Virus genome (UHGV): UHGV-0251712
Length of the DNA: 16,144 nt
Strand: one strand, 5' to 3'
Source of the DNA: a virus
Under the pieces are notes generated by a model. It did not search any database, was not told the origin of the DNA, and saw nothing but the letters and a program-made list of their open reading frames with translations. Numbering within the stretch: the stretch's first letter is position 1; each line of letters opens with the position of its first letter. Both the position numbers and the translations under genes were made by a program. Shown in pieces: positions 2,537-16,144 of this stretch.

Positions 2537-2599
2537 ATGATGAATGACGGTAAGCAACAATCTACCTTTTTGTTTCACGATTACGCGCAACACCCCTGA
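2537..2599 (+). pseudogene. sbcB: 5' remnant of the exonuclease I gene: MMNDGKQQSTFLFHDY (16 native codons), then junction and stop
   Basis: The translation matches the SbcB N-terminus MMNDGKQQSTFLFHDYETFG... through codon 16. From about 2585 the sequence no longer encodes ETFGTHPALD, and a TGA follows at 2597. Confidence 0.7.
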
Positions 2600-3205
2600 G
2601 AACCGCCATGAACAAGGGTTTCATGATTTGTGATTTTAGTTTGGTACGCAATTTGGTACACAACACAATTTTCACTTCAGCGGGTAGTCATCAAACTCAC
2701 CATAACGAGCATCGTTAATGATGTATGTGATCACCACAAACATCACATCTGGACTAGTTCCGCTTTCATGCGCAGGTATTTGTTCACGCCTCCCTTTCTG
2801 CAAATCATAAAGATGAGATTTTGGGGTTTTGGGATATCTTTTATCCGCAGTTCTCTATCCATTATGCAAACCAGTAATGAACCATCACCGTGTGATAGTG
2901 AGGCATCTGCCACGATAAGCGCAGAGAAATGATGCAGTGGTGGGCGGACTGGATTGATGAGAAGGTGGAGTGAACCACCTTAACCACTATCGAAGAGCAC
3001 AAAGCCTTGCAATCCAGTACAAAACTTTGTTTGTCTCATCAACTACCGCAAGTATCGATCGATGGAGCCTTGGATGATAGAATAAATTCGTAGCACTTTT
3101 TTTTAAAGTATCATCTCGCTCATGGTTACGTGATAGAAAAAGGACAAAATAATCTTAAATTTAAAAGCATATAAATCATACAAATAAAATTGTGGTGGGT
3201 GCGTA

Positions 3206-4204
3206 ATGTCTGATATTCGACAAAATAGAATAGAGTTAAATGAAGTGCATATAGCTCGCTCCATGGCTATATTTCTAGTTGTTTTACTTCATTCTTCAGG
3301 TGCTTTTTTTATGCAGTTTGGAGATCATTGGTGGATTGTTAATTTATACAGTTCTTTTTCAAGGCAGTGTATAGGTCTTTTTTTTCTTATCACTGGATAC
3401 CTATTTTATGAAAAAAACATAAACCCAACAGCACACCTAAAAAAAGGAGTGTCGAGATTGATAATACCATTCATATTTTGGTGGGTGGTATATTATATCT
3501 ACAATACAGAGATTAACAACAAATCATATAATTCTATATTTCAACCAAGTGAGGTACACCTTTGGTTTATGTATGCATATATTTGTATATATATGTTTTT
3601 ACCAATAATTTGCAACTCATTAAAACACATACCAACATATTACATTTTAATTATTGTAAGCATGCTTTTTTACTCAAATTCCATTGTCCCTGTAGTTGAT
3701 AAAACGATAATGAAGGTAACATGGTTTGATGTAAAACTAGTGTCTGAAAATGGGATATATATTCTTATTGGGGCAATAATAAGGAGATATAACGATAAAA
3801 TAAAAAAATGCAATGCAGTGATACCATTGGTGATTATTGTTATGTCGTGCCTGTTAACATCAATGGCATCTAGTTGGTGGTCTGAAATAACAGGCAGGCC
3901 TGAGCAGTTTTTCTTTAAAAATACATCTCCACTTGTATTAATATGTGTTATTTCTTCATTTACATTATGCATGTCATACTCAAAAATAATTAGCAAAAGA
4001 TTAATGAATTTATTTACATCAATATCAAATGTTTCATTTGGTATATACTTCGTCCATTTCTTTTTTGTTAGAGAAATTAGACTCGGGTATAATCAAGAAA
4101 ACGCATATTTCATGATACCATTGCTAACAATCATTTATTTTTTAATGTCATATTGCATATCAATAATTCTAAGCAAGATCCCTTTGCTTAGAAAAGTAAT
4201 ATAA
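3206..4204 (+). CDS. oac: acyltransferase-3 family integral membrane O-antigen O-acetyltransferase (Sf6 Oac-like), AT-rich serotype-conversion gene
   Basis: 332-aa polytopic membrane protein with very low GC (about 30%). The N-terminal ..IARSMAIFLVVLLHS.. motif is typical of acyltransferase_3. It lies stop-to-stop convergent with the tailspike gene, exactly as oac does next to gene 14 in Sf6. The symbol is given by context and size, not by verified sequence identity. Confidence 0.65.
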   Translation: MSDIRQNRIELNEVHIARSMAIFLVVLLHSSGAFFMQFGDHWWIVNLYSSFSRQCIGLFFLITGYLFYEKNINPTAHLKKGVSRLIIPFIFWWVVYYIYNTEINNKSYNSIFQPSEVHLWFMYAYICIYMFLPIICNSLKHIPTYYILIIVSMLFYSNSIVPVVDKTIMKVTWFDVKLVSENGIYILIGAIIRRYNDKIKKCNAVIPLVIIVMSCLLTSMASSWWSEITGRPEQFFFKNTSPLVLICVISSFTLCMSYSKIISKRLMNLFTSISNVSFGIYFVHFFFVREIRLGYNQENAYFMIPLLTIIYFLMSYCISIILSKIPLLRKVI

Positions 4205-6451
4205 TTATGGATTGTTAACCTTCCATCTTTTATCATAGTAATGCAAATATCCCTGAGACGTTAGTGTCATATGGACAATCGCTTGGGATATTTGCGCGTT
4301 CTGAAAATTAACTCTAATAAATACTTGAGTGCCAATTGTTATTTTTGATACAGATATCCCGTCAAGAGTCTTGTCTCCTTGTATTTTATTAACCCAAACA
4401 CCTGACGAAGACAAGGTTGCCTGATCCTTTCCGCTTATACTAAATATAATTTTACCTCCTGTTGCCAGTGAGGTGTTTACTCCATTTTGAGATATTGGAA
4501 TTATTGTAATTTCACCAGCAATGAAAACACCATTTTTGTATTTAGATACCTCACCTTGTTCACAAATTAAAATATCAATACATCTACCCCATGGTACTAG
4601 GATTGTTGCATTTTCAGTTTTTACTTGTGGATATACAGCTGAAACACCTGCAGATTCGAAATTTTTTGCTGATAAAACAACTCCGTCAGATCCATTTCTA
4701 AATCCCATTCCTGTATGATCACCGTATGTCCTTCCATGAGAGATGAATCCTCTTACATACTCTTCGGATACTGCGCTACCAGTGGTTTCCTTCTGAAAGA
4801 TAAATGTTTCACCAAAAGAAAAACCACGACATTGGTATTGGCTCTGATAATTTTCTGAGTTCTTAAAAAAGGAAATGCCTTTATATGCTGTTACATAGCC
4901 AGATCTAAATTGAACGGAAACAGGGGTTGTTTGTTCATCTGGAGGTAACTCCACAAAATGTGTAACATTTTGGCTGTTTGATTCCTGTAACCATACAGAA
5001 ACACCATCTATAATCATGGTTGAAAATCTACTGTTTATTTCTAACTCAGAAAAATCAAGAACATGATCACCTGTAACACCCTCAACTCCAAACCCATCAA
5101 TACTTAAAGACCTGAACTGATAGAATTTATGCGGTAACTCACAACCATCAGCTGCAATATTCATTGCGCTAGTGTACATTAATGGGTAAGGACTTATAAT
5201 TGGTTCATATGTTTCTCTATCTATTGCAGCCCCCCAAAGATACCCAACATTACAATGTCTTGCCCAGTTGGAAGAGAATGTAGTAGATGTGCCAGCCAAA
5301 CCGAAACCATAGATACAATCATATGCTTGGTTGTTTGTAACATTACTGACAAAGCATGATAAGGGAAGTGCAAATTTATAATGTAGAAATATGTTATTTT
5401 TAATATCATATTCACTACCCCCGCCAAAGGTTTGTGTTTGACCAGAAATGGCCAATGGGCTACCTGAATATTCATCGTCAGCGTTGCGAAAACACATATT
5501 CTTTACTTTAAGATTGTGCCCCCAACTTCCCATAACAAAACCACCACTTCCTGATGTATAAACAATACTTTTTTGTGGATTAATCCCATATAGATTTAGA
5601 CTAATCCCTTCCCATCTAAACTGGCTAATGTCAATTTGAGTGTTACCAATATATATAGGCTGGTCTATGAAAACAGGAAGTTTAGTTAGATAAGCTTTAT
5701 TAAGTGCTAATCCATCATTTGTTACACCTGTTAAATCAACGCCCCCCATGCTTGGCGCTCTAGGATACCCTGTGGCCTGAATAGTACTCCAGTCAATATA
5801 TGGAGCATCCATCCACGCTCCAAACATACGTGGTGTTACGTACCCCTTACCTTGAAGATCACGTTTCCAGCGTTTACCACCCACAGTGACAATGACCATG
5901 CCGTTATCATCTGCAGAAGTAGAATCTGTGAAATCGGCCACAAACAGACCACCACCAGTATCACCTGATACTGTCGGCTTCATGCCTGTAGTGTGGAAGT
6001 CGACGAAAATCTTTTGCTGATCTCGCTCAGGCTCAATTGTCCTTAACATTGCTATATCAGGGCATGTCCCGATGTATTTAAGACCGTCTTCCCCTGATAG
6101 AGATACTTTAAGCTGATCAGGATCATATTTAAGAACATTCGGAAAATAGAACTGCTGTGCACCATATGCATCATAAACAGCCATAGAATGGCCTTGCACA
6201 GTTACGAACTTGGCAATCTGTCCGTTATATACCGGATATCCAGCAGCGTTAATGATGATTGGTTGCGAAACAGGAACGCGAGAACCGTCTTCATTCTCCA
6301 CATAAACCTGAATCTGGTTTTCAGGATTTACCGGGTCAGTGTCAATTTTACCGATATAAATTTTGCCATTGGCTACGGCTTTAAAAGAACGAGCCATAGT
6401 GAAGAGTTGCGAAGGCATGCTTACCACAACATTTGCGGTGATATCTGACAT
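4205..6451 (-). CDS. tailspike protein: Sf6/HK620-type N-terminal head-binding domain fused to a distinct (unidentified) receptor-binding/depolymerase domain
   Basis: Residues 1-115 ([56 protein letters not shown]...VLKYDPDQ) are about 95% identical to the Sf6/HK620 tailspike N-domain and about 70% to P22 gp9. The true start is the second ATG (6451), which has a GGAG 7 nt upstream. The remaining ~630 aa do not match the Sf6 or P22 catalytic domains as remembered. Confidence 0.85.
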
Positions 6452-6572
6452 TTCATTGCTCCAGACGAATGATATGATGCAACCATGATGTGATTGCATA
6501 CCGAAATGGTACTATTGAGTATTTATCCAGTAGGTTACGATGCCATTCCACCCAACTGGTGAGGCATCAAGG

Positions 6573-6833
6573 ATGTACAGCAAATACGACGAGGCGCAGT
6601 TTCACTTGAGACTTCCGCATGAACTCCACGCGAAAATTAAGCAGCGTGCGAAGATGAATAACAGGTCGCTGAACTCAGAGATAATTGCAGCGATTGAAGA
6701 ATCATTGGCTAAACAAAGCTCTGCATCTGTTTACATTGACGATGCAGAGCGTATGGCAGAACAACAATCTGATATGGTTAAGAAAATTGTCTTTGATACG
6801 CTCAAGGAGCTATATAAAAAAGACAGCAGCTAA
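6573..6833 (+). CDS. mnt: Mnt-like ribbon-helix-helix repressor (P22 immI maintenance-of-lysogeny repressor family)
   Basis: C-terminal ..DDAERMAEQQSDMVKKIVFDTLKELYKKDSS matches P22 Mnt ..NDAERLADEQSELVKKMVFDTLKDLYKKTT. The N-terminal RHH region FHLRLPHELHAKIKQRAKMNNRSLNSEI matches FNFRMPMEVREKLKFRAEANGRSMNSEL. The start is chosen at the ATG aligning with the P22 Mnt N-terminus. Confidence 0.8.
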   Translation: MYSKYDEAQFHLRLPHELHAKIKQRAKMNNRSLNSEIIAAIEESLAKQSSASVYIDDAERMAEQQSDMVKKIVFDTLKELYKKDSS

Positions 6834-6852
6834 CCATCAGTTACGGAGGATT

Positions 6853-6933
6853 TATGCAAAGAGATATGCTGAACATTGCGTTCTACATATTTGGTTTTTG
6901 CACGTTCCTGGTGTTTGCGAAGCTATTCTGACA
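6853..6933 (+). CDS. possible 26-aa hydrophobic peptide MQRDMLNIAFYIFGFCTFLVFAKLF, overlapping the 3' end of the convergent ejection-protein gene
   Basis: ATG preceded by GGAGGA (4-5 nt spacer) directly after the mnt stop. The whole peptide is one TM-like helix. There is no other support. Confidence 0.15.
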
Positions 6934-9316
6934 ACGCATCAGACTTGGCACCCTGAGTAAGGGCGTTAATGGCCTTTTGCGCCTGCTGCATGGCTTTCTC
7001 AAACGCTGTTGATCCGCGTGGGGTGTTTGCCATTCGGAGCATTGCATTTCTGAATGGCTCGCTCTCATAGGCGCGAGTAAGAAGTCCGTAGCTTACTGCT
7101 GCGCCAGTTGTCGCCGGGTTCATTGCCGTCCCATATCCGATAATGAACGGGATGGTTTGCTGCCCTGTTGGTGTTGTTACTGCCGCTTTTGCTGCCTGCT
7201 GAGTGGACTGAAGGTAGTTTTTCAATCCTTTCAGATAAGCGGCTTCCTGACCTTTAAATGTGATGCCAGTCTGGTTTTGCAGGATGTTAAGCTGTCGAAG
7301 GAACTGGTCAGGTGAACCACCTGATTTCTCTATCGCCTTTCCAATAATGCCATTGCGCATTTGCGCTCTTCCAACGCGACCAACTGAGTTATACAGCGTC
7401 TTAATTTCCGATTTGTTCTTGCTGAATAGCATGTTGTTGACAACTTCCGGCGTCAGGTCGCCTTTCATGAGAACATTCTTCAGCCTGGTATTCTTTAGTT
7501 TCGCCGCTTCGTCAGCGTATACGGCATTGGCCTGCTGATATTTACGGAGAGTATCGTTGCCAAGATTCTGACCAATGGCACCATTGATATCGTCTGTCAT
7601 CGCCTTGTAAACGCGCTGAATGGCAGCATCGGAACGGTTTGGTAACACTGGTCGTTCACCCTTCACGTCCATTCTGAACTGGCTGCGCAGATCGCTTAAT
7701 TGCTTCAAATCCAGATTTACCGGACCATCAGGACCAGCATTGCGAACAAGCTCATCACGATATGACTGAAGTTTTGAAATAGTCTCGTTATCAGCAACCT
7801 TACCAAGCTTCTGCAGGTTAGATATTTCTGTATCAATCTGCTGAATTGCTCGCGCAGGCTGAATGTTTACTCCAGCCATAGCATTCTGAACCTGCTCCAG
7901 TCGATTACCGGCGGCACGACGAATTCCTGATGTTTTCGCTTTAAGGCTGTCAATAACAACAGATGGATCATACTCACCGAATTTATCAGCAAATCTCTGC
8001 ACCAACTGGCTTCTCGCTTCCTGTTGCGTTGCTCTCATTCCGCTTGTGCCAGCCAGAGGAATATTTTCTGCTGTAGTCTGCGCCATTTTTCCGACGCGGG
8101 AAGTAGGCTGTAACAGGTCTGTGGTGTGCAGAGGAACTCCTTCACGCTCTGCAAATCTGATAGCTTGCTGTGCTTCTGGCGCGATAGCACCACGAACGCC
8201 ACGATAAGCAGCACCTAATCCACGTCCGGCAGCGTTAATAGCACCGCCAGCAAGTACACCAACGCCTAAATCGGTGGCGAGTGCTTCCGCATCATCTTTC
8301 GCACTATTTGCAGCAAGTGATCCAACTGCGTTTTCTGCTAGAAGGCGAGTTGCCCCCTGAGCAATTCGACCAGCAAGTGTTGGTGCCTGTGCTGCCGCTC
8401 TCTCAACGCCAGCAGGAGTGAGGTAAGGCAATGCTTCAGCAAATACCCTTCCCTCTGTCGTTTGTGGAGTCAGCGCGCCTTGCCGAAGGCCAAAGTCCCG
8501 CTCTAATCCCTGCGTTGTTACTCGTGGTGCTGGTTGATATGTACCATCGCCAATGCCGAGTTTACCGCCAGCCCAAGCCGCCGCGCTTGTTACAGCATCA
8601 GTGAGTTCAGCAGGTATGTTCGCTACGTTGATTCCTGCCTGTAGTATGCCGCGCCCGGTTTCAGCAAGTCCATTACCAAGGTCAGACATTATTCCGCCTT
8701 GCTGCTGAACAGGTTTCGGTGCGACAGAACTTACGGGTTGAGGTGGCTGCTGACTGGCTGCCTGCTGCTCAATCTGAGCAAATGGATTATTTGGGTCTGA
8801 CTGCACACCTGATGCCGATACTTGTTCGGATGACTGTACTTCCAGTTGTGCAAACGGGTTGTTAGGGTCTTGCTGAGGATGTACCTTTGCAGAGGTGGCG
8901 CGCTGTTCGACTGTTGAGTCTGTCACCGGGTCACCCGCCCATTGAGCAAAGCGATCATCAACGTAACCGCGGCCTTCAGGTCCTGGCGTATATTCACCAC
9001 GCTTTGCCTTCATAACGTTGCCGGGACCGTCGTGATAAGCCTGAAGAGCGTCACGCCAGTTACCAAACTGCTGGTACATCTTTGCCAGATAGCGCGCGCC
9101 AGCGTCAGCCTGATATTCGGGGTTTTGCATTTGCTCATCGGTATAACCCATATCACGCCATGTCCCAGGCATGACCTGAGTCAATCCTACAGCCCCGGCG
9201 GAGCTTACTGCGGCAGGGTTGTAAGAAGACTCCTTGGCACCCAGTGCAGTCATCAACCCTTCTGGCACACCGTAACGTGCGCCAGCCTGCTCTAACAAAT
9301 CACGGTAATTAGCCAT
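6923..9316 (-). CDS. DNA ejection/injection protein (P22 gp16 / Sf6 gp13 position) with an N-terminal soluble lytic transglycosylase (SLT) domain
   Basis: 797-aa protein. Its N-terminus carries the SLT signature (..GAKESSYNPAAVSSAGAVGLTQVMPGTW...YLAKMYQQFGNW..AYHDGPGNV). It lies directly upstream of the tailspike in the Sf6/P22 late-operon order. The start is contiguous with the stop of the upstream gene (TAAATG). Confidence 0.65.
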   Translation of the reverse strand: MANYRDLLEQAGARYGVPEGLMTALGAKESSYNPAAVSSAGAVGLTQVMPGTWRDMGYTDEQMQNPEYQADAGARYLAKMYQQFGNWRDALQAYHDGPGNVMKAKRGEYTPGPEGRGYVDDRFAQWAGDPVTDSTVEQRATSAKVHPQQDPNNPFAQLEVQSSEQVSASGVQSDPNNPFAQIEQQAASQQPPQPVSSVAPKPVQQQGGIMSDLGNGLAETGRGILQAGINVANIPAELTDAVTSAAAWAGGKLGIGDGTYQPAPRVTTQGLERDFGLRQGALTPQTTEGRVFAEALPYLTPAGVERAAAQAPTLAGRIAQGATRLLAENAVGSLAANSAKDDAEALATDLGVGVLAGGAINAAGRGLGAAYRGVRGAIAPEAQQAIRFAEREGVPLHTTDLLQPTSRVGKMAQTTAENIPLAGTSGMRATQQEARSQLVQRFADKFGEYDPSVVIDSLKAKTSGIRRAAGNRLEQVQNAMAGVNIQPARAIQQIDTEISNLQKLGKVADNETISKLQSYRDELVRNAGPDGPVNLDLKQLSDLRSQFRMDVKGERPVLPNRSDAAIQRVYKAMTDDINGAIGQNLGNDTLRKYQQANAVYADEAAKLKNTRLKNVLMKGDLTPEVVNNMLFSKNKSEIKTLYNSVGRVGRAQMRNGIIGKAIEKSGGSPDQFLRQLNILQNQTGITFKGQEAAYLKGLKNYLQSTQQAAKAAVTTPTGQQTIPFIIGYGTAMNPATTGAAVSYGLLTRAYESEPFRNAMLRMANTPRGSTAFEKAMQQAQKAINALTQGAKSDALSE

Positions 9317-10648
9317 TTACTGCCCCAAAGATGGAAGATATCCGTAGCGATTAATGAAGTCGATTGACAGCTCGGGGTGCTGCTTCAGGTAATCTATAGA
9401 AGCCTGAGGCGCTTCCACTCGCTTGATACCGTTTTGCTGAACGTACTTACCAACCGCCTCATTACGCTTCTGGTTGAGCGTGTTCAGGATGACGCCAGCG
9501 TTGCGACGAAAGGACTCCTCGCTCTGCGAGTTCTGCAGCGAACCAACAGCCTGGTCGAGCTTTTTGCCCTCGGCATCAGAAAGTGCGCCCATGCCTCGCA
9601 TGGCCTGAACCGCTGTCAGGTATGCTTGGGATTTAAAGGTATCAAGTCGTGCCTGAGTGTCTGCAGCCTGTGAGCCTGGAACGTTGGGGATTACTCCACG
9701 TAAGCCTGTAATGCTCTTAAGTGAAGGAGAACTAACGATATCGTTCAGAGTGAACATGCTGGTTGTGAGGGTGTTGATGCCGTCTTTGTAGCCATCATTT
9801 AGCGCTTGCTGCTTCTGCTGCAACTGCTGGTTGTTGGCTGCTATGCGGCTCTGTATTTCCTGGCGCTTCAGGTCGTTAGTTTCTGCTGATAGCATCCGGT
9901 CAAGGCGCTTATTTTCGTTGTTAATGCGGTTTGTTTCTGCGTCCAGATTAATGCGCTGCTGACCTAAATTCGCCTGGATATCTTGCCCGCGCATTGTGAT
10001 TGCCTGATTCCGAGCGGCGGTTTGCGAATCCAGATCCTGACCGCGCATGGTAACCTGGCGACCCTGCATTTTATCCTGTAGGTCAAAGTATTTTTCGGGT
10101 CCGAGACTGTTCATCCCCAGGTGATCGACAAATTCGCCGAACTGCCGCGGGTTCTGTTGGTACATCTGAGCGACATCCTGAGGATTAACGCCAACACGAG
10201 CTAACTCACCGGCGTTGTTTTGCAGCCATGATTGCATTGCTTCTGGAGACGATGACGCAAGGCGTGCGCCAGCCGCTAAGGTGCCGATAGAATTACGCTG
10301 ATCTTCATCAATGAATCCCATGCCTTTACGAACGGATTCAATCTGTTCTGGATATTGAGTAGCCAACTGACGCAAAGCACCGCGATCACCAGACGCATAA
10401 GCATTAGCGTATGCCTGCTGAAATTCTTTCTGCCGCTGAGCCTGCTTTTCCTGCTGAAACACCCCCGCAATACCTGAAAGGCCTTGCAAAGCAGTCAGCC
10501 CAACATTGTTAGCGCCTGAACGCTCAATATCATTGTTCTGCCTGATAAGCTGAAGCGTATTGCCGATGTCATTTACGCTCGGAGCGTTTGAGTTGACGCC
10601 GCCGATACCAGCCAACAATCCGCCGTTTGTTCCTTGCCAAGTAGCCAT
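9317..10648 (-). CDS. DNA ejection protein (P22 gp20 / Sf6 gp12 position), Q-rich coiled-coil protein
   Basis: 443-aa protein, called by position between the gp7-like stub and the gp16-position gene. It contains internal near-repeats (TMRGQDLDSQ / TMRGQDIQAN). AAGGGG lies upstream of the ATG. Confidence 0.55.
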   Translation of the reverse strand: MATWQGTNGGLLAGIGGVNSNAPSVNDIGNTLQLIRQNNDIERSGANNVGLTALQGLSGIAGVFQQEKQAQRQKEFQQAYANAYASGDRGALRQLATQYPEQIESVRKGMGFIDEDQRNSIGTLAAGARLASSSPEAMQSWLQNNAGELARVGVNPQDVAQMYQQNPRQFGEFVDHLGMNSLGPEKYFDLQDKMQGRQVTMRGQDLDSQTAARNQAITMRGQDIQANLGQQRINLDAETNRINNENKRLDRMLSAETNDLKRQEIQSRIAANNQQLQQKQQALNDGYKDGINTLTTSMFTLNDIVSSPSLKSITGLRGVIPNVPGSQAADTQARLDTFKSQAYLTAVQAMRGMGALSDAEGKKLDQAVGSLQNSQSEESFRRNAGVILNTLNQKRNEAVGKYVQQNGIKRVEAPQASIDYLKQHPELSIDFINRYGYLPSLGQ

Positions 10649-10657
10649 GATTACCCC

Positions 10658-10835
10658 TTAAAACAACGAGCCAAGCAATCCGATACCAGCACCAATGCCA
10701 GCGCCCCAAGGCGTTGATGTTCCCAAAAGGCTGGCAAGACCTGCACCGGCAATCGCACCAGACGTGCCACCGCTAATTGCAGTCTGAAGACTTGATGGTT
10801 TAACCAAAGAGTAGTTGGCTTTGGGGTGACGTGAA
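10658..10835 (-). pseudogene. 3' terminal fragment of a gp7-like ejection protein gene (glycine-rich hydrophobic C-terminus), truncated by a deletion
   Basis: Only about 60 codons remain, ending ..GAIAGAGLASLLGTSTPWGAGIGAGIGLLGSLF immediately before the gp20-position gene. The frame runs upstream into the ssb fragment with no plausible start. P22 gp7 is about 229 aa. Confidence 0.35.
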
Positions 10836-11267
10836 GTGCAGCTGCACGACGGCAACCTGACAATAGCAACGTCAGAACAATGGCGAGATAAAAATACTGG
10901 CGAGCAAAAGGAATTGACTGAATGGCATCGTGTTGCTGTATCCGGGAAACTGGCTGAGGTCGTGGGGCAGTATGTGAAAAAAGGTGATCAGATTTATTTC
11001 GAGGGAATGCTGAGAACCAGAAAGTGGAAAGACCAGTCAGGGCAAGACCGTTACACAACCGAGGTTCATGTCGGAATTAATGGCGTGATGCAAATGCTTG
11101 GCGGCATTGGCGACAGCAAACAACAAGCAGCCAGCAGGCAATCACAGAAGCCACAGCAGCAATCATCACCAGCACAACACAACGAACCTCCGATGGATTT
11201 TGACGACGATATACCCTTTGCACCAGTAACTCTCCCCTTCCCTCGTCACGCTATTCACGCAATTTAA
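10836..11267 (+). pseudogene. ssb: single-strand DNA-binding protein gene lacking its first ~35 codons, with a 15-codon extension after the DDDIPF tail
   Basis: The translation ..[27 protein letters not shown]...[12 protein letters not shown]...MQMLGG...[12 protein letters not shown] aligns with E. coli SSB from residue ~36 onward. A TGA lies 3 codons upstream in frame and there is no ATG. DDDIPF is followed by [15 protein letters not shown] instead of a stop. Confidence 0.85.
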
Positions 11268-12951: not shown

Positions 12952-13398
12952 ATGACCACTATTACCAAAGAACGTATTGAATTGTTCATTAAAAATCCGC
13001 TTGAAAACGGGCTTACTCGTGGCGAACAAATGGAACTGGCACGAATTGCACTGGCATCACTGGAACGCGAACTGATTCGCCACGAGCATGCCAAATGGTC
13101 TGACTCCACATTTGGCTGCGTTGGCCCCATTGGTCCACTGAAACACCTCTCAAAAGAGACACTGGAAGCCGCAGCCGAACCAGACGATCTTAGCGAGTGG
13201 GCTGATATGCAGTTTCTGTTGTGGGATGCACAGCGCCGTGCTGGCATCAGCGATGCTGAAATTACCGCTGCTATGGAAGATAAATTGAAGATCAACATGG
13301 AGCGCCAGTGGCCTGAGCCAAAAGATGGTGAGCCTCGCTTGCACATTAAAGAACTCGGCAACTCTCCGGTAATTCCGGATGGTTCGGATGATGGTTAA
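12952..13398 (+). CDS. MazG-like all-alpha nucleotide pyrophosphohydrolase-type protein (prophage 'dATP/dGTP diphosphohydrolase' type)
   Basis: 148-aa protein with KETLEAAAE...DLSEWADMQFLLWDAQRRAGI, which fits the ExxE-(x12)-ExxD metal-binding pattern and helix arrangement of MazG/DUF550 proteins. GAGG RBS. Confidence 0.45.
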   Translation: MTTITKERIELFIKNPLENGLTRGEQMELARIALASLERELIRHEHAKWSDSTFGCVGPIGPLKHLSKETLEAAAEPDDLSEWADMQFLLWDAQRRAGISDAEITAAMEDKLKINMERQWPEPKDGEPRLHIKELGNSPVIPDGSDDG

Positions 13399-13547
13399 CC
13401 ATTTTTGATGTAAAAACATCCTTCTCTGAGGGCTTGCTCCTCAATAAGTTTGGTTTTATAATTACGCGCAATGAAGGTGGGCGGTTCGCTACTATACAAG
13501 AGGGGTGTACCCCGCGAACTTAACCCACCACCACTTTCCTCTCTACT

Positions 13548-14195
13548 ATGAATTGCAAATCAATGACCAGAAAATATGCCATCATGATCGATGCTGGTTT
13601 TTTGCGTGCAAAATTAGGCACAAAAGATAAGCCAATCGATGCGGAAGTAATCAAAGTATTTGTAGAAAAACTAACAAAAAGGCATGAACTAGAAGGCATG
13701 ATTTTGCACCGTGTTTATTATTACGATGCAGAGCCGCTTACCGGAATACAGACGCATCCGATTAGTGGAGAGAAAATTGACTTCTCTGAAACAGAAGTTT
13801 CTAAAAGAAATAAAGCCATGCTTGATGAGTTGAAAAGAACTCCTTTTTTTGCAGTAAGACTTGGAGAGACAAACTTTCGAGGATGGAAGGTTGACCCATG
13901 GGCATTAAAGAGCAGTGACTCTAAAACTTCTTCCATTAATGCCTACAATGTTAAGCCTAATGTTCAGCAGAAAGGCGTTGATATGCGTATTGCGTTAGAT
14001 ATGTCATCAATGTCATTAAAAAAACAGGCAGATATATATGCTTTGGTGACTGGTGATTCAGATTTTGTTCCAATTATAAAATTTGCTAGGAAAGAAGGCC
14101 GACAGATTTTTCTATACACACTGGGACATAGTGTCAAGCAGACGATGTATGAACATTCCGATTTGTTAGTGCCAGATACCATGGATAAATTGTGA
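13548..14195 (+). CDS. NYN-domain (LabA/PIN-like) predicted ribonuclease, low-GC cargo gene
   Basis: 215-aa protein with the N-terminal ..YAIMIDAGFL.. (first Asp), the central QQKGVDMRIALDM motif, and the GDSDFVP motif (ALVTGDSDFVPIIKFARKEGRQI) diagnostic of PF01936 NYN domains. GC is clearly lower than the flanks. It is preceded by a 150-bp non-coding leader. The start may be the internal ATG at 13563. Confidence 0.7.
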   Translation: MNCKSMTRKYAIMIDAGFLRAKLGTKDKPIDAEVIKVFVEKLTKRHELEGMILHRVYYYDAEPLTGIQTHPISGEKIDFSETEVSKRNKAMLDELKRTPFFAVRLGETNFRGWKVDPWALKSSDSKTSSINAYNVKPNVQQKGVDMRIALDMSSMSLKKQADIYALVTGDSDFVPIIKFARKEGRQIFLYTLGHSVKQTMYEHSDLLVPDTMDKL

Positions 14196-14374
14196 TTGGA
14201 GCTAGGAATAGGTTAGCCGCGCCTTAATAGATGATCCATTCTGGCAGAAAAAGAACACAAAGAAGTAGCCTAAGTGCCCCCAACTGCATTTACACCCAGG
14301 CCCTCATTGCGGGTCTTTCTATTTACAGAGATGGCTGAGCAGAACGCCAAGAACTGACAACCTGAACGAATACG

Positions 14375-14400
14375 AACCCGCCTAGTGCGGGTTTTCTTTT
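14375..14400 (+). terminator. rho-independent terminator (AACCCGC-CTAGT-GCGGGTT + TTTTCTTTT)
   Basis: 7-bp GC-rich stem followed by a T-run. Confidence 0.6.
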
Positions 14401-14405
14401 ATCTG

Positions 14406-14430
14406 AACTCGCTACGGCGAGTTTTGTTTT
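14406..14430 (+). terminator. second, near-duplicate rho-independent terminator (AACTCGC-TACG-GCGAGTT + TTTTGTTTT)
   Basis: Same architecture as the upstream terminator with one stem transition. The T-run ends 1 nt before the next ATG. Confidence 0.55.
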
Positions 14431-14742
14431 ATGGAGATGATTATGGCCTGTTCAACATTCAACCATTTAACGTTACAGAAATACCAGCCAGACCCTGAAG
14501 ATTTATGCTCACTGTGTGGCGGAAATCATGGTAAAGCCGCCATGATCGAATGTAAGGACAAAATCCACATTTGCCTTAATTGCGTTGATGTCCTCGTTGA
14601 TATCAAAAATGAGAGAGAAGATAAAAAGCGTAGCGAGGCTATTCGCGCATTAGATTCATGGATGCGAGATGGGTATAGTGCTGCGCAAATTTATGACTTC
14701 GCAATATCAAAAGGCGAAATACCAGGAGTGCGCATCGAATAA
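14431..14742 (+). CDS. small C4 zinc-finger protein (about 100 aa; probable start at 14443, MACSTFNHL..)
   Basis: CSLCGG...CLNC motif pairs. GGAGA lies 5 nt upstream of the ATG at 14443. It is followed by a terminator at 14784-14808. Confidence 0.5.
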   Translation: MEMIMACSTFNHLTLQKYQPDPEDLCSLCGGNHGKAAMIECKDKIHICLNCVDVLVDIKNEREDKKRSEAIRALDSWMRDGYSAAQIYDFAISKGEIPGVRIE

Positions 14743-14783
14743 GACGTAACCAATATTCGAATTGAAGAACTGAAAGAACACCA

Positions 14784-14808
14784 AGCCGCCTGATGGCGGT
14801 TTCTTTTT
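14784..14808 (+). terminator. rho-independent terminator (AGCCGCC-TGAT-GGCGGTT + TCTTTTT)
   Basis: Stem-loop plus T-run 40 nt after the stop of the zinc-finger gene. Confidence 0.55.
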
Positions 14809-14823
14809 GCCTGGAGAATTAAG

Positions 14824-14928
14824 ATGACCGATACCAGCCTGATTCCTGAGAAAGAAGTGATGAACAAGCTCGGTGTTTCATCACGTCAGACAATCTGGAA
14901 CTATACCAAACGGCACGGATGGATATAG
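14824..14928 (+). pseudogene. AlpA/TorI-family excisionase/regulator gene truncated after codon 32 (34-aa product ending ..KRHGWI*)
   Basis: GGAGA RBS. MTDTSLIPEKEVMNKLGVSSRQTIWNYTKRHG matches the N-terminal HTH of AlpA/TorI/Vis proteins (..LGVSRSTIYR..K.G.FP..). It breaks exactly where the 36-bp int-derived repeat begins (14917). Confidence 0.5.
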
Positions 14929-15189
14929 GTTACTGGCGAACACATGATTTCAGAAGAACGCTTGTTACACGTCTGTCCGAGATGAATGTCGAGCCTCATG
15001 TTACTGAGCGAATGCTCGGTCATGAACTTGGCGGGATAATGTCCGTATACAATAAACACGATTGGATAGAGGCTCAGCGCAAAGCGTATGAGCTTCACGC
15101 TGATAAATTGTTCTGGCACATCAGGAGCATTTCTGATTAACGCCACCGTTAAGTGAAATCATGTGTTCGCCAGTAACCTATATCCATCC
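14917..15189. repeat. 36-bp perfect inverted repeat (14917-14952 and 15154-15189) flanking a 201-bp segment
   Basis: GGATGGATATAGGTTACTGGCGAACACATGATTTCA is present on the plus strand at 14917 and as its reverse complement at 15154. The flanking bases differ. Each copy encodes GMDIGYWRTHDF of the integrase. Confidence 0.9.
14919..15140 (+). pseudogene. int: tyrosine integrase C-terminal catalytic fragment (73 codons: box II HDFRRT, LGH, catalytic Tyr in ..MSVYNKH..)
   Basis: MDIGYWRTHDFRRTLVTRLSEMNVEPHVTERMLGHELGGIMSVYNKHDW.. contains the HxxR, H and Y catalytic elements of phage integrases. There is no N-terminal DNA-binding or core-binding part on this strand. Confidence 0.8.
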
Positions 15190-16144
15190 CTCCCCTTATT
15201 CTATTTACGAATCGGTTGGCTGCAGCGATGCTGATCGGTTTGTTTATGTCTTCTCCAGGGAAAAGAACATCATTGTACGTTGTCATGGCCTTATCGAGGA
15301 AAGGCTTAATTTGTTCGAAGATTGGACGGCGGATAACATTACCCATCTTGCTATGCTCTTTCGGTACGGTCCATACGTTGTCCAGCAGGTCAAATTCTGT
15401 CTTTGTTGCCAGCCTAAGCTCTGAGAGCCTCGCCCCCCACAGCATAAGCATCTGATGAAGGAGCTTATTTGACGTAGACGCACGGCTTCTTTCAATAGCA
15501 AGCCAAATCTTAGCCAGTTCGTGATACGACAGTACCCGATCCCCTACCTCAGCGCGGGAGCCGAAGTCCCTTGGCTGGATGCTCATAATTGCGCAACTAT
15601 CTATCAACTGACGCCGCATGCACCAACTAATTGCTGATCTTAGTTGACTTAGCACCTGCCTTGCTCGGCGTGGATTATCTTTTTCTTCTTCGGTAAGCAG
15701 GTCAACCCATTGCTTAACCGTGATAGAAGATGCCGGACGATTAGGAAAGGCGTCATGCATGCGCTTCATAACCGTTGATCGGTAAAGTGCCTGGGTCTTT
15801 TCTCTGAGAGTTGTAGAGACGTAGTTGTCGAACCAGTAGTCGAGACACTGGGCGACCGTCATGGAGTTCTCCACCTTCTCTTCAAAATAAGTGCGTGGAT
15901 CCGTTCCTGAGAAATAGAGCTTTCGCAAGTCAGCAGTGATCTGTCTGGCATCCTTCAAAGACAGGGATGGGTATCGACCAAGCCCAAGTCGATTAGGCTT
16001 GCCATGCCAGCGATAGCGGTACTGGAACTGGATGACCCCCTTCGGTGAAATTCGTACGCTGAGGCCATCGGCATCAGCCACTTCTTGTGGGCCCGAATAT
16101 GGTTTACCATAAATAGTACGCAGTTTTGTGTCGCTTATAGCCAT
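15149..16144 (-). pseudogene. int: P4/DUF4102-type tyrosine integrase N-terminal 331 codons (arm-binding and core-binding/early catalytic region), ending ..GYWRTHDFT* just before the second catalytic Arg and the Tyr
   Basis: The N-terminus ..LSVRISPKGVIQFQYRYRWHGKPNRLGLGRYPSLSLKDARQ.. is typical of P4-like integrases (IntS/IntA family). The ATG is exactly at the window end. Together with the plus-strand fragment it would make a ~404-aa integrase if the 201-bp segment were inverted. Confidence 0.85.

Follow-up and report, generated by a model that had tools for sequence, protein, structure and literature searches.

The prophage remnant that occupies most of this DNA carries an integrase gene (int) broken in two by a small inversion, and the sequence comparisons make it very probable that a private structural mutation inactivated int and destroyed the adjoining excisionase gene (xis) of a P22-like prophage, gutted beforehand or at the same time, lying between dacD and sbcB of E. 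coli. What remains of int is a two-piece pseudogene, neither piece of which has a complete active site; xis is dead, and the remnant is locked in the chromosome. The perfect 36-bp inverted repeat that now brackets part of the gene is a by-product of the mutation and not an evolved recombination site.

Anatomy of the split integrase gene

Throughout, the window denotes the whole stretch of DNA analyzed, 16,144 bp in length. Near its right-hand end a repeat finder reports two inverted-repeat arms of 44 nt, 93% complementary and separated by a 201-nt spacer (14909–14952 and 15154–15197), within which lies a perfect core of 36 bp (14917–14952 and 15154–15189). The chance expectation for such a pair in 16,144 bp is about 3e-14. 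Of the two core arms, the right (15154–15189) is the original copy, in place within int, and the left (14917–14952) is an extra, inverted copy of int codons 320–330.

In the list of open reading frames, the N-terminal fragment of int lies on the minus strand at 15149–16144 (read 16144 to 15149). Its 331-aa product comprises residues 1–330 of the integrase followed by a single Thr before the stop codon, so that the C-terminus reads ...GGMDIGYWRTHDFT. Eight base pairs separate this frame from a second, on the plus strand at 14919–15140, that encodes the catalytic tail: 73 aa, beginning MDIGYWRTHDFRRTLV and carrying R331 (Arg II), H354 (His III) and Y363, the Tyr nucleophile. An earlier reading of the letters without database searches (hereafter the sequence-only reading) had described this split, together with the perfect 36-bp repeat around 201 bp, and both the repeat finder and the ORF list bear it out. 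That reading also held that inverting the segment would restore a full-length int. Flipping 14953–15153 in silico does indeed give a single uninterrupted ORF, although one of 392 aa, not the ~404 aa proposed; its length is that of the intact homologue, from which it differs at 3 residues. Both pieces are otherwise free of stops and frameshifts, which points to a recent rearrangement.

The division of the gene is mirrored in its domains. Arm-DNA-bind_3 (PF13356) is found on the N-fragment at 65.1 bits, against a Pfam cut-off of 27, whereas the Phage_integrase domain (PF00589) is shared out between the two frames, its first three quarters on the N-fragment (29.4 bits; profile positions 2–132 of 172) and its last quarter on the 73-aa tail (26.8 bits, just below the 27.1 cut-off; profile positions 126–169). 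The same profile scores 61.5 bits on the intact homologue. In phmmer searches the N-terminus of the integrase matches the solved arm domains of CP4-like integrases (3jtz, 3ju0), and the body matches lambda Int. The "P4-type" label given to the enzyme in the sequence-only reading is thus a reasonable one, in view of the Arm-DNA-bind_3 domain and the match to CP4-like arm domains.

Residue by residue, the N-fragment holds the arm-binding domain, the core-binding region, Arg I (R239) and His II (H328), and is without Arg II, His III and Tyr. The break falls inside the H-x-x-R motif itself, so that H328 belongs to the N-fragment and R331 to the tail. Aligned by phmmer with lambda Int, H354 and Y363 stand opposite H333 and Y342; the alignment runs one column off register at H-x-x-R, where the candidate arginines, R331 and R332, both lie on the tail regardless. 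The complete R-K-H-R-H/W-Y set is absent from each fragment, and is united in one polypeptide only after the in-silico flip or in the intact homologue.

A known int-xis module at sbcB

Judged by its similarity to described elements, the locus is the known int-xis module of P22-like and lambdoid phages that integrate at sbcB, among them Sf101, HK140, mEp234 and Stx phages. Identity across the module ranges from 98.4 to 99.7% among the matches listed, similar sequence is carried by 2,569 of the 5,426 complete E. coli genomes, and the same module is present in phages HK140, Sf101, mEp234, Stx2a_WGPS6/8 and others. In the ancestral layout, xis (plus strand, 192 bp, 63 aa) converges on int (minus strand, 1179 bp, 392 aa) with an overlap of 20 bp, and annotation of the complete E. 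coli genomes and phages inspected (HK140, Sf101, mEp234, Stx2a_WGPS6) shows the pair intact and convergent. The 63-aa helix-turn-helix protein is annotated in phage records either as AlpA family or simply as helix-turn-helix; when intact, it matches PHROG 66, "excisionase and transcriptional regulator", with E=1.9e-8.

The module forms the end of the prophage that adjoins sbcB, at a chromosomal site between dacD and sbcB. On the dacD side, the prophage att core CGTAATCGTGAAA, as published for Sf101 and phage 2851 (PMC4159516), is present as an exact 13-bp match at 2573–2585 on the minus strand. A complete prophage at this site (L003) has both copies of the core, the second of them 215 bp past the int start codon; here, the second copy would be expected some 215 bp past the end of the window, in the 5' end of sbcB. 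The sbcB-integrating phages (Sf101, phage 2851, HK140, mEp234, HK544 and Stx2a_WGPS6/8) accordingly resemble the present element closely, matching its int and xis at 98.6–99.6% of nucleotides and sharing both the 13-bp att core and the dacD–sbcB site. They differ from it in that theirs is one 392-aa int with an intact, overlapping 63-aa xis, whereas here 237 bp are inverted, 36 duplicated and 62–66 deleted.

The rearrangement at base resolution

Alignment by blastn to an intact module (L001, whose positions serve as reference below) resolves the region into three blocks. Window positions 14389–14920 correspond to reference 2689–3220, and 15154–16144 to reference 3484–4474, both on the same strand; the int N-fragment is 99.3% identical to the latter stretch. 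The block between them, 14917–15153, matches reference 3519 down to 3283 on the opposite strand at 99.6% identity. Listed on the plus strand, this inverted 237-bp block places int codons 320–392 and the stop codon on the wrong strand; it also contains the last 33 nt of xis, at 15121–15153 on the minus strand, and is 100% identical over its length to strain LR-50. Reference 3484–3519, a stretch of 36 bp, is duplicated, with one copy at each end of the inverted block, and these two copies are the arms of the repeat. At a position where C (Leu) is found in several relatives, both arms have A, giving an Ile codon; this agreement is what recent copying of one arm from the other should produce.

The cost to xis was a deletion of its middle 62–66 bp (reference 3217/3221–3282). 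A 5' remnant of the AlpA-like excisionase gene survives on the plus strand at 14824–14916, where the alignment to L001 accounts for nt 1–93 of 192, and the truncated ORF (14824–14928) runs on into the repeat to encode 34 aa, against 63 in the intact gene. By nucleotide, xis is cut after nt 93–97, nt 94/98–159 are deleted and nt 160–192 are inverted. The sequence-only reading had an alpA/torI-like gene broken at 14916/14917, and the helix-turn-helix, xis-like ORF does break there, within an ambiguity of 4 bp that arises because GGAT (14917–14920) matches both parents. The first junction (J1), between xis and the inverted block, accordingly shows 4 bp of microhomology (GGAT), with 9 of 12 positions matching around it; the second (J2, at 15153/15154) is blunt, with 0 bp.

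A flip of the segment leaves 62–66 bp of xis missing, and therefore does not recreate the ancestor. The flipped sequence would differ from the ancestral one in having an inverted 36-bp piece of int in place of those 62–66 bp. Its int frame is restored but its xis is not; in either orientation xis encodes a 34-aa stump.

Could the arrangement be an artefact of assembly or library preparation? The rearrangement would then be chimeric, or the orientation of the 201-bp segment would be an arbitrary choice by an assembler with k no greater than 36, and the real int would be intact. The joins between an arm and the inner segment are the same in both orientations, so only sequence spanning a whole arm is diagnostic (after the left arm, GAAGAACG marks the state in the window and CTTAACGG the flipped state) and the orientation is fixed only by reads of that span. 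The window, moreover, ends exactly at the int start codon. However, the overlap is 4 bp at J1 and 0 at J2, and a de Bruijn graph cannot invent such junctions; with overlaps of at most 4 bp, both must exist in the reads. A chimeric path would likewise not remove 62–66 bp of xis wholly, given normal reads, modern read lengths and k values exceed 36, and the remnant has other genuine illegitimate junctions. An assembly artefact is therefore unlikely, and we attach little probability to it.

Absence of the rearrangement from other genomes

The scar is private in the sense that it is absent from the collections searched. Among the 5,426 complete E. coli genomes, coverage never exceeded 64% for a 371-bp query across the rearrangement or 55% for one of 66 bp across J1. 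For the int-xis query, 228 genomes match 80–84% and none more. In a phage collection of 50,697 records, the best match covers 81% of the 1,445-bp int-xis query, none covers more, and J1 is absent; coverage of 81% is what is expected when the 237-bp block sits on the other strand. An exact 34-nt probe for J1, a sequence present in both orientations of the segment, found no match in species-representative genomes, viral contigs or metagenome contigs. Exact-product look-ups returned no record of the 331-aa truncated int product among indexed public assemblies, and none of the tailspike.

The sequence-only reading envisaged that other genomes carrying this int might have the same 36-mer in inverted orientation downstream of the gene; instead, it is single-copy in 8 of the 8 loci with this int that were fetched. 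Relatives sought through the NYN protein, the 103-aa ORF and the gp20-like protein proved to be mosaic only, at the same or other att sites, and none had this remnant.

The 73-aa tail does occur as a separate gene on three contigs (L004–L006). All three keep the collinear arrangement of the intact gene, with a frameshift in two, a truncation in one and an inversion in none. They are independent, ordinary routes to loss of this int.

A gutted prophage

The element around the scar spans ~13.8 kb, as against ~42 kb between the att cores of a complete prophage at the same site, a loss of ~28 kb. Gene content in the window begins with host sbmC and dacD, followed by the att core, an Oac-like acyltransferase, the tailspike, a Mnt/Arc-type repressor and two ejection proteins. 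The ejection genes run directly into early-left genes, namely abc2, ead, a dATP/dGTP pyrophosphohydrolase and the NYN protein, and then into xis and int. The immunity region (repressor/cro), N and the replication, lysis and head genes are absent from the remnant. With immunity, replication and head genes gone, there is no functional phage that an integrase switch could serve.

The site of the internal deletion is itself compound. An island of 56 bp at 10802–10857 (plus strand) is 100% identical to L003 37186–37241 and to L007 5798–5853, and originates just upstream of gene N, which is annotated in L007. It is flanked by the 3' part of a gp7-like ejection gene (~10802) and by the middle of the phage ssb, homology to which begins at 10854 and overlaps the island by 4 bp (10854–10857). 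Complete E. coli genomes contain no sequence that spans this compound junction. The deletion also took the whole region upstream of the surviving N-leader fragment, where one would look for PL. Besides the int-xis scar, the element has two further illegitimate joins of a similar kind, and no transposase domain was found among window ORFs of at least 80 aa. Degraded remnants at the sbcB locus of Shigella and E. coli offer a parallel, in that L004–L006 contain independent int pseudogenes. The decay of the S. flexneri sbcB remnants has been attributed to IS elements, whereas the joins here are illegitimate, with 0–4 bp of microhomology.

Possible inversion between the repeat arms

The second of the two explanations put forward in the sequence-only reading was a genuine recombinational switch: as a regulated or selected function, the segment between the 36-bp arms would invert back and forth, so that int is alternately split (off) and intact (on). 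The geometry is suitable, with 201 bp bracketed by perfect 36-bp arms and an intact 392-aa ORF produced by the in-silico flip, and arms of this length are above the minimum commonly cited for RecA-dependent recombination in E. coli. We nevertheless regard such a switch as very improbable. The repeat is private: the relatives examined carry the 36-mer once, and J1 is absent from all collections searched. Even the flipped state is still without 62–66 bp of xis, and so no excision module is restored; nor does the prophage retain immunity, replication or head genes to regulate. The arms, furthermore, are unlike the att core, which has its single match in the window at 2573–2585 and none in the arms within 2 mismatches. 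No domain of another recombinase, whether a serine invertase/resolvase or a second tyrosine recombinase, was found among the window ORFs, and the sole candidate enzyme, Int, is the broken gene.

Programmed invertible segments provide an instructive comparison. Those of fimS with FimB/E, the Hin/Gin/Cin/Pin systems (including pinE of e14) and the R64 shufflon with Rci likewise have an inverted repeat bracketing a short segment whose orientation decides coding contiguity. As described in one survey (PMC4272514), their repeats are conserved across strains, a dedicated recombinase is encoded nearby and both orientations coexist. Here, by contrast, the repeat is private, there is no working recombinase, and the window presents one orientation, while no other sequence in the public data has the repeat in either.

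A weaker version of the same idea dispenses with regulation. Having arisen as a scar by mutation, the repeat might undergo an accidental, low-frequency flip-flop, with homologous recombination between the arms giving rise to a rare subpopulation in which int is whole again. Only 201 bp separate the arms, which are identical, and as a single strand the DNA of this region folds into a stem of 36 bp (dG -69 kcal/mol, z = -9.3). However, an intact Int would still be without Xis. Precedent, too, is unfavorable: among the E. coli strains surveyed in PMC4272514, the variable loci given in the paper's text all lie at known or presumed programmed switches, namely fim and invertible segments in the e14, Mu and P2-like prophages (the invertase gene pinE being named for e14), and the micro-inversion reported there, in an evolved strain, is fixed and not variable. 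On balance, accidental flip-flop has a small but real chance of being correct. Only a slight chance attaches to the further claim that the repeat flips at a measurable rate, by a RecA-dependent route or by replication slippage, in which case a subpopulation with intact int in a Xis-less remnant would amount to a newborn, unselected "proto-switch".

Possible activity of the two fragments

Some tyrosine recombinases, such as Flp, build their active sites in trans. On this general ground, the sequence-only reading had suggested that the two-piece state is not necessarily inert, and one might picture the two int fragments assembling, or complementing one another in trans, as an active recombinase. 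Expression of the tail is conceivable through translational coupling, given a 10-nt overlap between the end of the truncated xis ORF and the start of the tail frame (ATG at 14919). The particulars of the locus nevertheless tell against such an enzyme. The break splits H-x-x-R between H328 and R331, and no AGGAGG-like Shine-Dalgarno motif is discernible by eye upstream of the ATG at 14919 (AAACGGCACGG). A consensus scan found no promoter-like site in 14300–16144, and three terminator-like hairpins lie upstream of the tail on the plus strand. The N antiterminator gene has been deleted, as has all that lay upstream of the 56-bp N-leader fragment, the expected place of PL. Xis is dead, and it is general knowledge that lambda-family integrases cleave in cis. 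Taken together, the split motif, the lack of a Shine-Dalgarno motif or promoter-like site and the loss of N would make an active two-piece enzyme very unlikely; as an account of the locus, it is barely credible.

Proposed origin of the scar

A mutational scar, the first of the two explanations in the sequence-only reading, is the one that the evidence favors: an inversion accompanied by a 36-bp duplication and a 62–66-bp deletion in xis, joined through microhomology at one junction and bluntly at the other, private to this element and situated in a gutted prophage. Its most likely origin, we infer, is one replication error in which the template was switched twice within the same fork. The nascent strand would have quit its template at int codon ~331 (reference 3484) and switched to the complementary strand at reference 3283. 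About 237 nt of the opposite strand would then have been copied, back to reference 3519, before a return to the original template at reference 3220, 62–66 nt further on, by way of the GGAT microhomology. The distances between switch points, 201 and 62–66 nt, fit within one fork.

Precedents for such events are at hand. Lin et al. (2011; PMC3161906) described complex E. coli rearrangements with two novel junctions, 3–30 bp of microhomology and inverted copies, which they ascribed to repeated template switching, including switching within a fork, and a template-switch model of the FoSTeS/MMBIR type was set out by Hastings et al. (2009; PMC2621351). The present scar shares with the rearrangements of PMC3161906 two non-recurrent junctions (here with 0–4 bp of microhomology), an inverted nearby copy, and a small duplication and deletion. 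It differs in scale, with 237 bp here, within the fork dimension of ~1.5 kb (PMC3161906), as opposed to kilobases there, and in that dependence on replication is in this case deduced from the product.

Other routes could lead to the same end. Inversion at staggered breaks, with fill-in and end joining, would yield the same product. So would two successive steps, in which a templated 36-bp inverted insertion at the xis deletion first left int intact and a flip between the arms followed later, although the one-step route is more parsimonious. The mechanism is reconstructed from a single end product, and J2 is blunt under the one-step and the two-step routes alike.

Implications

The rearrangement is an ordinary one, private and pseudogenizing, in a prophage that is decaying and belongs to a well-known family. 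Invertible integrase C-termini are not demonstrated by it. For annotation, the two int ORFs should be entered together as a single disrupted pseudogene, with the 34-aa ORF labelled a truncated xis, both in a locked prophage remnant; beyond annotation the finding has little importance. What the locus does provide is a base-resolved natural example, in E. coli, of a small inversion/duplication/deletion scar with microhomology, which may serve as a single data point for studies of template switching or of prophage decay.

Scars and gene loss in the remnant

A compound internal deletion of approximately 28 kb interrupts the prophage (window 10651-11267). Within it, a 56-bp island (10802-10857) has been retained, whose sequence in intact relatives directly precedes gene N and matches at 100% identity. 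On one side, the island is flanked by what remains of the 3' part of a gp7-like gene for an ejection protein; on the other, by the middle of the phage ssb. The second of its joins carries a 4-bp overlap. These joins and that at int/xis are illegitimate junctions of like kind, so that the scars may share a single cause or a single episode.

The fate of this integrase is not peculiar to the remnant. Inactivation of the same gene arose independently in L004, L005 and L006, contigs in which the 73-aa tail is called as a gene of its own; in two Logan assemblies, frameshifts split int into 250-aa and 73-aa ORFs, while in one metagenome contig unrelated sequence cuts int off. This integrase is commonly lost; likewise, the region upstream of sbcB is reported to be highly variable in S. 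flexneri (PMC4159516). The window stops at 16144, exactly where the start codon of int begins, and its sequence shows neither the promoter of int nor the att core on that side nor sbcB.

Early-left region

Just upstream of xis, three terminator-like hairpins occupy the plus strand (14374-14424 and 14783-14802). Terminator-like sites number eight in the 1.8-kb region, relative to 1.5 expected from shuffles, and in the record for HK140 the matching stretch carries a terminator annotation. In the intact phage, the hairpins probably gate read-through of the early-left operon into xis. The early-left region also houses, side by side (window 12952-14195), genes for a 148-aa dATP/dGTP pyrophosphohydrolase and a 215-aa NYN-domain protein (PHROG 5783, unknown function). 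Because prophages that use other att sites and have a lambda-type int encode the very same NYN protein, its gene is a putative mobile accessory ("moron"-like) cassette.

The retained O-antigen end

At the opposite end of the remnant (window 2573-10648), the ORFs look intact: an Oac-like acyltransferase (3206-4204), the tailspike (4205-6499), an Mnt/Arc-type repressor (6540-6833) and two ejection proteins (6923-10648). P22-like prophage remnants at a different att site are also present in several other E. coli assemblies (L015, L016, L018 and L022), where gp7-gp20-gp16-tailspike and O-antigen-modification genes directly adjoin early-left genes. A central deletion that spares the ejection, tailspike and O-antigen end seems to recur. 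In the present remnant, the retained acyltransferase could still bring about serotype conversion by modifying the O-antigen, a possible reason for the survival of this end of the prophage.
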